Positions 9,965-34,407 of a DNA stretch of 64,000 bases are shown in pieces. Under the pieces are notes generated by a model. It did not search any database and was not told the DNA's origin. It saw only the letters and a list, made by a program, of their open reading frames with translations. Positions within the stretch are counted from its first letter, which is position 1. Every line of letters begins with the position of its first letter. Origin of the DNA: Thermoanaerobaculia bacterium (GTDB taxonomy: Bacteria; Acidobacteriota; Thermoanaerobaculia; Gp7-AA8); NCBI GenBank assembly GCA_036488085.1, contig DASXHZ010000058.1:69468-133467 (forward strand). Reading direction: 5' to 3'. Both the position numbers and the translations under genes were made by a program.

Positions 9965-10091
9965 GGGTATCACTCTATCCTGAGGAGCCGAAGGATCGGT
10001 TGCGTCTCGCGCGGTTTGCGTAGCTGGCGCGCAAGTTACGCAAGACCTGAACGCCACCCGCTCCGCGCTCAGGAGATAAACTGCGTGACCG

Positions 10092-10775: not shown

Positions 10776-10866
10776 CGTTACCCGTTATCCGTTATCGCCG
10801 GGGCTCTCCGATAACGGGTAACGGGTAACGGATAACGCCTCTGGAAGCCTTTCACCTCGCCCAGCG
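10776..10866. repeat. Imperfect hairpin built from YCCGTTA/TAACGGR heptamers between sdaAB and sdaAA
   Basis: GCGTTACCCGTTATCCGTTATCG...CGATAACGGGTAACGGGTAACGGATAACGC. Confidence 0.8.
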
Positions 10867-19893: not shown

Positions 19894-20697
19894 GTGTATC
19901 CGACACTCGTAAAGTTCGGCAACTTCGAAATCACCACGTTCGGCCTGATGATGTTCCTCGCGTTCGTCGCGGCCGGATGGGTGCTCACGCGCCAGTTCCG
20001 CCGCTACGGCCTCTCCGACGATCTCGCGTCGACGATGGTGATGGCGGCGGCGATCGGCGGGATCGTCGGCGCGAAGGTCTACTACGCGATCCTCTATCAC
20101 TCGTGGGCCGAGCTCTTCTCCCGCGCGGGGCTCGTCTGGTACGGAGGGCTCCTCGGCGGCGCGGTCGCCTGCTCGTTCGTCATCGTCCGCAACAAGGTCG
20201 ATTTCCTCGTCGCCGCCGACGCTGCCGCTCCCGCGCTCGCAATCGGCTATGCGTTGGGACGCATCGGATGCCTTCTCGTCGGCGACGACTACGGCGCACC
20301 GACGAACGGCTGGTGGGGCATCGCCTTCCCGAAAGGCTCGCCGCCGACGACTGCGTACTCGCTCCGCGAGTTCGGCGTGCACGTCAGTCCCGCGATTCCC
20401 GACAATGCGGTGCTGAGAGTGCATCCCACCCAGATCTACGAGTCGCTCTCCGCGTTCGTCATGTTCCTGATCCTGATGCGCGTCGAGTCGCGTCCGCACC
20501 GGAAGGGCACAGCCTTCGCGCTCTTCCTCATCCTCATGGGCATCGAACGCTTCCTCGTCGAAATCGTCCGCGCCAAAGACGACCGCTTCCTCGGCCCGTT
20601 CACCATCGCCCAACTGATCAGCGTTTTGATCGTGGTGATTGGGATTGTGTTGCTGTCTCGCTCTTCGCGCCGTGCTGACTCGTTTCCGTCATCCTGA
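19894..20697 (+). CDS. lgt: Prolipoprotein diacylglyceryl transferase
   Basis: GRIGCLLVGDDYG and HPTQIYES signature motifs. GTG start chosen just after the DUF4388 stop (track ORF begins at 19819). Confidence 0.85.
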   Translation: MYPTLVKFGNFEITTFGLMMFLAFVAAGWVLTRQFRRYGLSDDLASTMVMAAAIGGIVGAKVYYAILYHSWAELFSRAGLVWYGGLLGGAVACSFVIVRNKVDFLVAADAAAPALAIGYALGRIGCLLVGDDYGAPTNGWWGIAFPKGSPPTTAYSLREFGVHVSPAIPDNAVLRVHPTQIYESLSAFVMFLILMRVESRPHRKGTAFALFLILMGIERFLVEIVRAKDDRFLGPFTIAQLISVLIVVIGIVLLSRSSRRADSFPSS

Positions 20698-21063
20698 GCT
20701 TGGCGGAGCGGCGAAGCCCGTATGTAGGGTGCGGCTCTTAGCCGCACCACGGCCGGCTAAGAGCCGGCCCCTACACAACCCCGCAGCATCCGCGAAATCT
20801 CCCCTCGTCATCCTGAGTCGCCGAAGCCGCGAAGCGGCGCAGGACGGCGAAGGAACTCAAGATGTGAGGCAGGAGCCACATGCAGCGCATTCTGAGATCC
20901 TTCGCTGCGCTACGCGGCTTCGCCGCTCCGCCAAGCTCAGGATGACGGAACGAGATTTCTTCACAGCCTCTCAGGATGACGGAGTTGTTTGTGCATCGCC
21001 GTTTGGACTGACCCGCGCGGTGTAACCGGAGATCCTTCCGCTGCGCTGCGCTCCGCGTCAGGA
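20686..21063. repeat. Cluster of at least five direct and inverted copies of a REP/MITE-like element with core GTCATCCTGAG / CTCAGGATGAC (GCGAAGGA variants)
   Basis: 33-bp perfect inverted repeat at 20688-20720 vs 20913-20945. Nested palindrome at 20734-20786. Further copies at 20804, 20890, 20955 and 21018-21063. Confidence 0.8.
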
Positions 21064-22116
21064 TCGACTCTTGCGAGCCTTGGCGACGATCGCCTTCCCC
21101 CGCGCGTCGCTGACGCTGTTGTTCATCACCTCGGCCTGCTGGGCGTTGAGCTTCGCGCCTTTCGCGACGAGGGCGTCGGCGGCGTCGAAGCGGCTCATCA
21201 CAAGGGCGATCATGAGCGGCGTCATGCTGCTGCCGTTCATCGCGTTGACGTCGGCGCCTGCCGCGAGGAGGCGGTTCACGACTTTGGCGCCGCAGTACTG
21301 CGCCGCGGTGATGAGGGGCGTGTTGGCGTTGTCGTCTTTCCGCTTCACGTCGGCGCCTTTGGTGACGAGGAGGTCGACGACGTTGGCGATCAGGTCCGTC
21401 TCGCCTTCGCGCGAGCAGCCGGTCATCGCCGCGAGGAGCGGCGTATCGTTGCCGCCCTCGCCGTCGACCGGCACGCCGGCTTTGAGGAGCTGTTTCACGT
21501 CCTCGTAGTTCGCTTCGAACGCGGCTCGATGGAGCGAGTCGGCAGACACGTCGATCTCGCGGATGCGCAGGTACTCCAGCGCGTCTTTCTCTCCCTCGGC
21601 ACTCTTCGGCTTGAGGGTCGCCGCCGGCGAGTCGGTGCGCATCGACGAGATGTAGTTCTGCAGGATTTCGCCGCGGCTCTTCACGTAGTCGTCGGAGTCT
21701 TTGAGCGCCATCGCGGTGACCTGGTCCAGCGCGTCGCGCGACGCGCCCATGTCGCGTAACCCGAGAATCGCGTCGCCGCGGAGGAACGTCGAGTTCGAGC
21801 GGTTCGCGGCGATCGAGAGGAGGATCGGCGTCATCTGCGCGATGACGTACTCCTTCACGGCGGCCGGACTCGTGCCGTTCGCGCGTCCGAGGTCGATGAT
21901 CGCCGAGACCAGATGTTTCTGGTCGTCGTCATCTTTCGACGTGCGGAGCATCTCGATGAGCGGCCCGATGTCGCGCGCCGCATCGACGTTGCCGGCTTCG
22001 ATCGCCTCCTTCGCGCGGTCGGTGAGTTTGCCGACCTTCCCGGACTGATCCGCGAACGCGGAGTGGGCGAGGAGTGCTACGAGTCCGAGGATGCCGAGAG
22101 CCCGCATCGATCGCAT
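21058..22116 (-). CDS. Secreted ankyrin-repeat protein
   Basis: Signal peptide MRSMRALGILGLVALLAHSAFA. Several ANK repeats (TPLLAAM...GADV, TPLITAA...GADVNA, TPLMIA). Its stop codon lies inside a repeat element. Confidence 0.75.
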   Translation of the reverse strand: MRSMRALGILGLVALLAHSAFADQSGKVGKLTDRAKEAIEAGNVDAARDIGPLIEMLRTSKDDDDQKHLVSAIIDLGRANGTSPAAVKEYVIAQMTPILLSIAANRSNSTFLRGDAILGLRDMGASRDALDQVTAMALKDSDDYVKSRGEILQNYISSMRTDSPAATLKPKSAEGEKDALEYLRIREIDVSADSLHRAAFEANYEDVKQLLKAGVPVDGEGGNDTPLLAAMTGCSREGETDLIANVVDLLVTKGADVKRKDDNANTPLITAAQYCGAKVVNRLLAAGADVNAMNGSSMTPLMIALVMSRFDAADALVAKGAKLNAQQAEVMNNSVSDARGKAIVAKARKSRS

Positions 22117-23365: not shown

Positions 23366-23760
23366 GCCAGTCTGCAGCCCGCAAACGCGGAGTTGCACCC
23401 TGCATCCGCCAGTCTGCAGCCCGCAAACCCGCAGTTGCAGCCTGCATACGGCGGTCTGCACCGCCGCACACACGGGGATGCAGCCTGCATACGGCGGTCT
23501 GCACCGCCGCGCACACCGGGATGCACCCTGCATACGGCGGTCTGCACCCCCGCACACACCGCGATGCGGCCTGCAACCGGCGGTCTGCGCCCCCGCACAC
23601 GCCGGGATGCAGCCTGCATACGGCGGTCTGCACCCCGCAGACACCGGGATGCGCCCTGCATACGGCGGTCTGCACCCCGCAGACACCGAGATGCACCCTT
23701 GCATACGGCGGTCTGCACCCCGCAGACACCGAGATGCACCCTGCATCCGGCGGGCGACGG
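23366..23760. repeat. Tandem array: two ~44-bp units followed by about eight 42-43-bp units (ATGCAGCCTGCATACGGCGGTCTGCACC...)
   Basis: Head-to-tail direct repeats read in the sequence. Each unit carries the dyad ATGCAGcCTGCAT and CGGCGG-TCTGCA-CCGCCG. Confidence 0.85.
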
Positions 23761-33522: not shown

Positions 33523-34407
33523 ATGACTGGTCGGTTTTCGCGCGTTATCGTCGCAGTTACTCTCGGGCTCTTCGCCCTCGTGCTTCCTGCATCGGCCCAG
33601 CAGTGGACGACGAATAGCTCGACGATGTACGCGGATCCGGCGGTCTCGTTCGTTGGAATCGGCACGACGTCGCCGGCGCCTTACGGGATGCAGATCTTCA
33701 GCAGCACGGGGAACTCGTTCTTCGGCGTAAAGTCGACGTTTGGGCTCGCCGGCTTCATCATGGACCGGAAGGACACGACGGTAGCCTCTTCGCTGAACTA
33801 CCGCACCGGTGGGACTGACACCTTCATCGAGGGAATCGGCGTCTACGGCAGCGGAAGCAACTGGCAGATTGGCAACAACGTTGCCCCTTTCCTGACAATG
33901 ACAACGTCTGGCAACATCGGCATCGGGACGGCGAGTCCGGCGTATGCGCTCGACGTCGCGGGAGCGATCCACGCTTCCAACGTGATCGGCGCGTCCTACC
34001 AGGACGTGGCCGAATGGGTTCCGGCATCGACCGAAATGAGCGCCGGCACGGTCGTCATCCTGAGCCGTGACAAGAGCAACGAAGTGACGCCGTCGTCCAC
34101 CTCGTACGATTCGACGGTTGCCGGTGTCGTCTCGGCGAAGCCCGGAATCATCCTCGGCGTTGCGTCGCCCGATAAGGCGCAGGTTGCGACGACCGGTCGC
34201 GTGCGCGTGAAGGTCGATGCCACCAAGGAGCCGATCAAGATCGGTGACCTCCTCGTAACCAGCGATAAGCCGGGAACCGCGATGAAGTCCATTCCGGTCA
34301 ACGTCGCCGGCATTTCGTTGCACCGGCCGGGCACCATCATCGGCAAGGCGCTCGAGCCCCTCAATTCCGGCGAGGGCGAGATCTTGGTCCTCCTCTCCCT
34401 CCAGTAA
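33523..34407 (+). CDS. Secreted protein with tail-fibre-like GN(I/V)GIGTxSPxYxLDV repeats
   Basis: Signal peptide. Two copies of the NVGIGT(A/T)SPAY.LDV motif. GGAGGAAAG ribosome-binding site. Confidence 0.55.
   Translation: MTGRFSRVIVAVTLGLFALVLPASAQQWTTNSSTMYADPAVSFVGIGTTSPAPYGMQIFSSTGNSFFGVKSTFGLAGFIMDRKDTTVASSLNYRTGGTDTFIEGIGVYGSGSNWQIGNNVAPFLTMTTSGNIGIGTASPAYALDVAGAIHASNVIGASYQDVAEWVPASTEMSAGTVVILSRDKSNEVTPSSTSYDSTVAGVVSAKPGIILGVASPDKAQVATTGRVRVKVDATKEPIKIGDLLVTSDKPGTAMKSIPVNVAGISLHRPGTIIGKALEPLNSGEGEILVLLSLQ

Follow-up and report, generated by a model that had tools for sequence, protein, structure and literature searches.

Two described systems come closest to the hairpin units treated here. 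Di Nocera, De Gregorio, and Rocco (2013, BMC Genomics 14:522, PMC3733652) defined the CGTC-tagged repetitive extragenic palindromic sequences (REPs), which combine a CGTC or TGTC tag with a stem of 8–9 bp beginning with AT, a loop of 4–5 nt, and a tail of 3 nt; they form head-to-head dimers, lie downstream of genes, have no dedicated transposase, and include dRS3 of Neisseria and RPE-4 and RPE-6 of Rickettsia. Chenal et al. (2025, Nat Commun 16:2388, PMC11893778) characterized Ssn, a single-domain GIY-YIG nuclease (cd10448, ~94 amino acids) that binds the hairpins termed NTS or Ssn-related motifs (SRM) as single-stranded DNA only and cuts a few nucleotides upstream of them. Here, we describe a cluster of related hairpin units in a 64,000-nt stretch (hereafter, the window) of contig DASXHZ010000058.1 from a Thermoanaerobaculia bacterium, located between lgt on the + strand and a convergent ankyrin-repeat gene on the − strand. 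We consider it probable, at roughly 0.78, that positions 20684–21068 hold five Ssn-related hairpin units of a subfamily with a tandem G.A stem mismatch, which would be what remains, without the gene and in partial decay, of one or more hairpin-ssn-hairpin cassettes inserted at the 3′ end of lgt, with a GTAG-tagged doublet nested in the first unit.

In the Ssn system, cleavage is controlled by the three nucleotides that precede the palindrome, no base matters more for binding than the C that follows it, and the loop is dispensable or can be extended (PMC11893778). At least one SRM accompanies 71% of ssn loci and 42% have SRM on both sides, the NTS-ssn-NTS layout has been noted as insertion sequence (IS)-like, and in N. 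meningitidis the Ssn/NTS system restricts transformation by NTS-bearing DNA (PMC11893778). The tandem-G.A units resemble SRM/NTS in being oriented hairpins with an unpaired GTC upstream, a C directly following the palindrome, AT at the start of the stem, and a variable loop, as well as in flanking a GIY-YIG gene of ~93 codons on both sides with the tags outward; in both cases the units far outnumber the genes and are rarely intragenic. They differ in the invariant tandem-G.A mismatch of the stem and in the GC-GNA-GC mini-hairpin at the apex. This form occurs in Acidobacteriota, Chloroflexota, Bacteroidota, Firmicutes, the candidate phyla radiation (CPR), and other groups, and the units in the window are gene-less and partly degenerate.

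The features shared with the CGTC REPs are the unpaired CGTC/TGTC tag, the AT-starting stem, the short loop, the 3-nt tail, the predominance of head-to-head dimers, and the placement between unidirectional or convergent open reading frames (ORFs), downstream of coding regions and occasionally within them. The family as a whole has the defining features of that class, deviating in the tandem mismatch, the 3-nt loop, and the existence of long-loop forms. Two further differences are the tail, for which the CGTC REPs have the consensus CCA and the tandem-G.A units CTC, and the presence of GIY-YIG genes flanked by units, where the published survey reported no dedicated enzyme (PMC3733652). The same pipeline dropped repeats with more than one stem mismatch (PMC3733652), and the tandem-G.A form would therefore have been excluded. 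Judged by their sequences, the units in the window are CGTC-tagged REPs and Ssn-related motifs of a tandem-G.A subfamily that escapes the published search pattern.

The hairpin units and their nuclease gene

Exact copies of the core GTCATCCTGAG lie at 20688 (+), 20807 (+), 20936 (−), and 20970 (−), and a fifth, degenerate core, GTCGATCCTGAC, occupies 21068–21057 (−). With one mismatch or fewer allowed, GTCATCCTGAG has five matches in the 64 kb, compared with 1.13 expected, and none of 100 shuffles reached five. The units (c1 to c5 from left to right) are oriented + + | − − −, symmetrically about ~20876, with the outer tags pointing at the neighboring genes, and the whole region folds far more strongly than shuffled sequence (z = −11.4 for the + strand and −9.1 for the − strand). 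A preliminary description of the stretch had listed at least five core copies, some inverted, which agrees with the four exact and one degenerate copies on both strands. Its perfect inverted pair of 33 bp is real but measures 35 nt (20684–20718 and 20916–20950), the coordinates first given being 2–3 nt off at the inner end, and the internal palindrome that it reported is present at 20723–20744 and 20754–20775, with arms 91% complementary. It had also placed the stop codons of both flanking genes within element copies. The ORF of lgt indeed ends at TGA 20695–20697 and that of the ankyrin gene (−) at TGA 21060–21058, the JGI gene calls agree on both, and the two stops share one register of ATCCTGA. 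The suggested REP- or MITE (miniature inverted-repeat transposable element)-like nature likewise holds up, in that the core belongs to a hairpin family dispersed over many phyla, of which a fuzzy scan recovered 323 units, compared with 1 in the reversed-sequence control.

A unit of this family has the form Y-GTC-AT-CCT-GA-GC-(GNA loop or inserted hairpin)-GC-GA-AGG-AT-C-T, extending from GTCATCCTGAG to ..GAAGGATCTC, and its short canonical form is CGTCATCCTGAGCGAAGCGAAGGATCTC. The stem (ATCCTGAGC/GCGAAGGAT) has nine positions, two of them G.A, and the loop is mostly GNA (GCA 32, GAA 20, GTA 9, and GGA 5) or is replaced by a hairpin insert, with loop inserts of 3–33 nt. Only ~28 nt are conserved; the flanks are random, and conservation ends exactly at the tag. 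Across the 323 units, the stem pairs covary (CG 250, TA 49, and GC 10; TA 291 and CG 18; GC 293 and AT 15), and in alignment A1, 96.4% of the cells pair and five of seven pairs change on both sides, shuffled and slid controls being far lower. Hardly any variation is seen at the two tandem G.A positions, in the GTC tag, or at the C that follows the stem: G, T, and C of the tag are conserved in 321, 316, and 323 units, respectively, and the C after the palindrome in 319. Among 158 units, GTC is preceded by T in 117 and by C in 33, and the tail reads CT(C). The bases found critical for Ssn (PMC11893778) are the most conserved ones of the family units, namely the GTC tag and the trailing C.

A scan with a two-part pattern over one genome per GTDB species matched at least 120 genome stretches from more than 12 phyla, and the same scan of IMG/VR matched 13 contigs. 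Acidobacteriota, Chloroflexota, Bacteroidota, Firmicutes, CPR, Omnitrophota, Planctomycetota, Proteobacteria, Gemmatimonadota, Nitrospirota, Cyanobacteria, Verrucomicrobiota, and Fibrobacterota are among the matches listed. A very common, rarely annotated 28-nt motif is placed in the known mechanistic frame of Ssn and SRM. In the literature, the literal GTCATCCTGAG turned up in primers only. The motif translates as VILSEAKDL or ILRCAQDD, peptides that probably recur in spurious ORF calls of many phyla. Annotators should bear in mind that a unit can provide a gene with its stop codon and a short C-terminal tail, and that spurious ORFs can arise from it.

The units often lie 5–60 nt past a stop codon and mostly between convergent or co-directional genes, with ~79 unit clusters in convergent or tandem gaps and 10 in divergent gaps; unit doublets are convergent in 14 cases and divergent in 1. 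Of 84 comparable family copies, 6 resemble those in the window in that the TGA of the unit terminates the upstream ORF. Since a unit has a stop in just one of its three reading frames, a gene whose end overlaps a unit will terminate there in about one case out of three, and the supply of stop codons is probably a by-product and not a function of the unit.

A metagenome scan with Lgt returned 80 loci at 67–92% identity, and at many of them an ORF of ~93 aa directly follows lgt, with one unit on each side and the GTC tags outward. The ORF encodes a single-domain GIY-YIG protein (PF01541, E = 2.7e-10) with 42% identity to the gonococcal SsnA homologue (E = 2e-23), and its putative placement in the cd10448 class has these two matches as support; NCBIfam has no model for it. 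With a strict structural regular expression (259 matches vs 4 in controls), 15 of the 28 GIY-YIG ORFs in all fetched loci have a (+) unit 30–60 nt upstream and a (−) unit ~20 nt downstream, and most of the others show the same layout with variant hairpins. In a check that started from the protein, homologues P0063 and P0111 were flanked by units (L215 and L227), and P0081 (L226) had units downstream of the gene only. In the family at large, the units flank a single-domain GIY-YIG gene; in the window, only the 3′ remnant of such a cassette is present. Among neighboring ORFs of at least 90 aa near the 120 loci, no transposase family was enriched, and because ssn is so short, the same enrichment nearly missed it as well.

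Flanked ssn homologues were also found by tblastn in cultured strains of S. meliloti, Sphingobium, A. lipoferum, Planktothrix, Spirosoma, and N. gonorrhoeae. Host-specific CGTC hairpins surround the gene in Sphingobium, in S. meliloti (gltA|ssn|lpxB, L229), and in A. lipoferum (sufB|ssn|sufC on plasmid p3 of strain 4B, L230), the homologue on a Planktothrix plasmid (MmeI|ssn|DrmA, L231) has TGTCATTCTGAGTGAAACGAAGAATCTC units, and the gonococcal homologue is flanked by dRS3-type units. The homologues in L229, L230, and L231 sit within housekeeping operons or defense islands. New Ssn/target pairs for biotechnology might be drawn from the tandem-G.A subfamily.

A probable cassette at the 3′ end of lgt

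The lgt-aroC junction of related genomes offers a graded series of states. In the empty site, the lgt stop and the aroC start overlap or lie at most 16 nt apart; distances of 341–404 nt correspond to one cassette and ~800 nt to two. At 70–205 nt, some junctions hold hairpins with remnants of the nuclease ORF (L143 and L190) and others hold unrelated hairpin repeats. In five loci (L165, L159, L201, L143, and L169), lgt reads into or through the left hairpin. This series, from empty through one cassette, two, and ORF-decayed to gene-less, is direct sequence evidence for cassette insertion and decay, which the Ssn study only hypothesized (PMC11893778). Between filled and empty sites, which come from genomes only ~70% identical, no target-site duplication or defined insertion site emerged. 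A different hairpin repeat family (GTTCACCACAGAG...CTCTGTGGTGAA) was observed at the lgt-aroC junction of L154, L162, and L159, and the occurrence of unrelated hairpins at the same junction suggests that the 3′ end of lgt is a general landing site for small palindromic repeats.

The closest relatives of the locus in the window, L135 and L136 (Lgt 92% and 87% identical, ankyrin protein 86% and 81%, respectively), have no units. There, lgt is followed by a TauE-like gene, a second membrane-protein gene, and the convergent ankyrin gene; 3 nt separate the stop of the ankyrin gene from that of its convergent neighbor. Lgt ends in ...SRREKTIAPAP in these relatives and in ...SFPSS in the window, the change falling exactly at c1, and the ankyrin protein ends in ...AIVAKATSKPAAKKK in the relatives and, after ..AIVAKA, in ...RKSRS in the window, the change falling exactly at c5. 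Since both tails diverge exactly where the outer units start, both gene ends appear to have been rewritten, with the cluster in place of ~1.27 kb present in the nearest relatives; the earlier proposal that the element shaped both C-termini is upheld by this comparison.

The right end of the cluster carries the trace of the nuclease gene. A TGA followed by CCCGCGCGGTGTAACCGGAG and hairpin c5 (21009–21068) match the ssn stop, the subterminal sequence, and the right hairpin of the cassettes in L205 and L166, and the cassette end in the window has the same orientation and the same position after lgt as in those two loci. The window shares TGA-(T/C)CCGCGCGGTGTAACCGGAG with L205 and L166, where it lies at the ssn stop and right end, and the 16-mer CTCCGGTTACACCGCG (− strand) occurs in 1.43 Mb of loci only beside cassette hairpins, in L166, L205 (at both ends), and L214.

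If the window units behave as their homologues do, the following mechanism can be proposed. In single-stranded DNA, each unit would fold as a hairpin, which an Ssn nuclease, a single-domain GIY-YIG protein of ~93 aa, would bind together with the C that follows; it would then cut the strand that bears the tag, a few nucleotides 5′ of the GTC, while double-stranded DNA, RNA, and the opposite strand would not be substrates. These steps were shown experimentally for the Neisseria and Wolbachia homologues (PMC11893778) and are carried over to the window by homology. As the outermost tags face outward, that of c1 toward lgt (+) and that of c5 toward the ankyrin gene (−), the predicted cuts would fall in the last codons of both genes. 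We infer that a cassette may have inserted into the interval separating lgt from the ankyrin gene, or taken its place, where close relatives have two other genes, and that its ORF may have been lost by internal deletion, with L143 and L190 as possible half-way stages. Both gene ends would have been clipped in the process, so that each would now end at the only in-frame stop of the unit (ATCC-TGA).

How the cluster may be explained

Several observations weigh against the gene-less cassette. (i) The published SRM pattern, HGTCWYN(0-2)YYVSBRHN(0-5)WNVSBRGN(0-2)RNCYNB, has no match in the window or among the 323 family units and misses a large cross-phylum subfamily; it does match the NTS, A. lipoferum, and Sphingobium forms, and it was a search tool built from 29 genomes and not a definition of the class (PMC11893778). 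(ii) The scans of the source contig, which covered 80.7 of its 92.2 kb, found no ssn gene, and a cognate nuclease in the source genome is hypothetical. (iii) Single units have nearest-neighbor energies not markedly different from those of shuffled sequence (z = −0.4 to −1.9), and the degenerate units may be inert relics, considering that neither the 3′ half of c1 nor any part of c4 can form the basal helix and that c5 has an extra G after the tag. (iv) Ssn cutting and binding of tandem-G.A units are predicted by homology. (v) Nesting, gene conversion between c1 and c3, and deletion of the two genes may have followed one another in any order.

A broader claim would be that the tandem-G.A units and the small GIY-YIG genes together constitute a distinct, horizontally spreading, and still mobile transposable cassette, driven by the GIY-YIG enzyme and having its own DNA specificity outside the reach of the published SRM pattern, a preference for gene 3′ ends, gene-less MITE-like doublets, and the capacity to remodel host genes. 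We regard this as a tentative proposal that is somewhat more doubtful than probable. If it holds, the window would be an instance of host-gene remodeling by a mobile cassette, with two genes lost and two C-termini rewritten.

The hairpins could alternatively be mainly a host element acting at the RNA level, as a bidirectional terminator or a 3′-end stabilizer for the convergent lgt and ankyrin transcripts. The position of the cluster between convergent genes, its strong folding on both strands, the scarcity of family clusters in divergent gaps and their frequent position shortly after a stop, and the argument that many REPs are transcribed (PMC3733652) all speak for such a role. However, 20684–21068 contains no T-run or terminator-like site, and unit orientation relative to transcription is only weakly biased (30 vs 19). 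The best-conserved bases, the unpaired GTC tag and the trailing C, fit recognition by Ssn and not a stabilizer of RNA, and SsnA does not bind RNA (PMC11893778). In Rfam, neither the window nor the canonical doublet gave anything at the gathering score, the E-value matches being spurious miRNA-like hairpins. An origin as an RNA element is therefore unlikely, and a role in RNA is possible as a side effect that is compatible with the gene-less cassette. Ribozymes, K-turns, and SECIS elements were dropped as candidates because the helix is continuous and T8 of the TGA covaries to C, without Rfam support.

It is very unlikely that the units are REPs or REPINs moved by a RAYT, a Y1 transposase of the IS200/IS605 type. 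The REPIN/RAYT systems of GTAG REPs, reportedly described by Bertels and Rainey in 2011 and by Nunvar in 2010, share two traits with the tandem-G.A family: hairpin doublets far outnumber a small nuclease gene, which in turn has inverted units on either side (REPtron-like), and hairpins are recognized in single-stranded DNA. The convergent doublets resemble REPIN organization, and the nested doublet at 20723–20775 has the GTAG-plus-hairpin form, for which a RAYT may be responsible. In contrast, the five main units are tagged GTC and not GTAG, and in relatives and cultured strains the units surround genes for GIY-YIG enzymes and not for HUH/Y1 transposases. The lack of an enriched transposase family near the 120 loci points the same way, as does the finding that no RAYT is flanked by CGTC units (PMC3733652). 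No RAYT was seen in our material, in which no search was aimed at one.

Classical MITEs have terminal inverted repeats (TIRs) and a target-site duplication and are kin to full-length IS elements. That the cluster is such a MITE mobilized by a DDE transposase, a local duplication, or a chance palindrome is the least credible reading, for although tagged units are confined to this cluster within ~81 kb and the perfect inverted pair of 35 nt suggests recent local copying or gene conversion, the 28-nt unit recurs with covarying stems in hundreds of unrelated loci across phyla, conservation stops at the tag, no direct repeat was seen by eye at a few cassette ends (L147; no systematic screen for target-site duplications was made), no transposase is linked, and the full-length relative encodes a GIY-YIG nuclease. 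The preliminary description had named the absence of the core elsewhere in the genome as the sign of a local duplication. In the scanned part of the source contig, a single untagged hairpin is the only further copy, with no tagged unit outside the cluster, while the dispersal of the family across genomes stands.

Parts of the cluster and other repeats of the contig

The gene lgt (19894–20697, +), for prolipoprotein diacylglyceryl transferase (PF01790, E = 2e-56), takes its last four codons (F P S S) and its stop from unit c1, which spans 20684–20802 (+) and is a long-loop form interrupted after ..CGTA by the palindrome at 20723–20775. The 5′ part of c1 (20684–20722, +) consists of the TTC-CGTC tag, ATCCT-GA-GC, and a long loop insert up to ..GAAGCC-CGTA, and it holds the lgt TGA; its 20684–20718 portion is 100% the reverse complement of 20916–20950 in c3, the core being exact. 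The first 35 nt of c1 are therefore identical to c3 while the 3′ parts of the two units have diverged, a pattern that points to recent gene conversion or templated repair involving the inverted units more than to simple common descent. The degenerate 3′ part (20776–20802, +) reads ..CGCAGCATCCGCGAAATCTCC and can no longer form the basal helix, and GAAATCTCCCCTCGTCATCCTGAG (20794–20817) mirrors 20936–20959 at 83%.

The nested element (20723–20775, no assigned strand) is a separate kind, a putative GTAG-type REP doublet of REPIN-like form with two inverted arms, TGTAGGG-TGCGGCT-CTT-AGCCGCA-CC (20723–20748, +) and TGTAGGG-GCCGGCT-CTT-AGCCGGC-C (20775–20751, −). Its DNA fold has −22.9 kcal/mol (z = −6.3). 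At the matching place, c3 reads CGTA-GCGCAGC without interruption, and the palindrome appears to have been inserted into c1 after ..CGTA. No second copy of the doublet was found in ~81 kb of the source contig. A generic scan for GTAG-plus-hairpin elements was unspecific, with more matches in the reversed-sequence control than in the real sequence, and was discarded.

Unit c2 (20806–20858, +), a long-loop form, reads CGTCATCCTGAGT, then 29 nt with a CCGCGAAGCGG mini-hairpin, then CGAAGGAACTC; it was matched by the fuzzy family scan and yields the expected hairpin in the DNA fold (−13.5 kcal/mol). The spacer of the convergent pair c2/c3 (20859–20893, unstranded) has its own small palindrome, ATGTGAGGCAGGAGCCACAT, and contains the symmetry center of the cluster, whose arms at 20822–20871 and 20881–20930 are 74% complementary and 9 nt apart. 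The best-preserved unit is c3 (20894–20950, −), a long-loop form with TTC-CGTC-ATCCT-GA-GC, 30 nt, and CGAAGGAT-CTC, which matches both exact search patterns and the structural regular expression and gives the expected hairpin in the DNA fold. Unit c4 (20951–20983, −) is short and degenerate, TC-CGTC-ATCCTGAG-AGGCTGT-GAAGAAATCTCG, with an exact core at 20970–20980, a covariance model score of 10.1 bits, and no predicted basal helix.

The putative 3′-end remnant of the ssn cassette occupies 21009–21031 (+) and comprises the presumed nuclease stop TGA (21009–21011) and the subterminal CCCGCGCGGTGTAACCGGAG. Unit c5 (21029–21068, −), which would be the right-end hairpin of the former cassette, reads GTC-G-ATCCT-GA-CGC..GCG-GA-AGGAT-CTC and holds the ankyrin stop at 21060–21058; it matches the structural regular expression at 21032–21064 and scores 11.4 bits with the covariance model. 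Its tag is degenerate, GTC followed by an extra G, where c1–c4 have CGTC. The ankyrin-repeat gene (21058–22107, −; PF12796, E = 2e-22) takes its last three codons (S R S) and its stop from c5.

Elsewhere in the contig, a solo hairpin of the same family without the GTC tag, ATCCTGAGGAGCCGAAGGAT (9977–9996, +), was found by the structural regular expression in a divergent gap between a response-regulator gene (−) and an SDH_beta gene (+). It is also the best match of covariance model R1 in the window (14.5 bits, E = 0.11), a model that was rejected as a detector because it is too short to discriminate in a window of 65% GC. A half-site-like CTCAGGAGATAAAC lies ~70 nt away, at 10069–10083. Two further candidates were rejected: an exact GTCATCCTGAG at 34054–34064, taken as a chance match because a coding ORF (..VVILSRDK..) encloses it and the 3′ half is missing, and a resemblance to MOBP-nic (YATCCTG), which amounts to 6 nt without relaxase context. 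Two other repeats were observed in the window. A long palindrome at 10776–10836, formed by GTTACCCGTTATCCGTTATCG and CGATAACGGGTAACGGGTAACGGATAAC, immediately follows the SDH_beta-like gene's stop codon and has no kinship with the GTC-tagged units. A tandem array at 23370–23753, with a period of 43 (two half-units of ~21 nt), 9 copies, 87% matches, and the consensus GTCTGCACCCCGCACACACCGAGATGCACCCTGCATACGGCG, takes up the 415 nt that separate aroC from the next aminotransferase gene.

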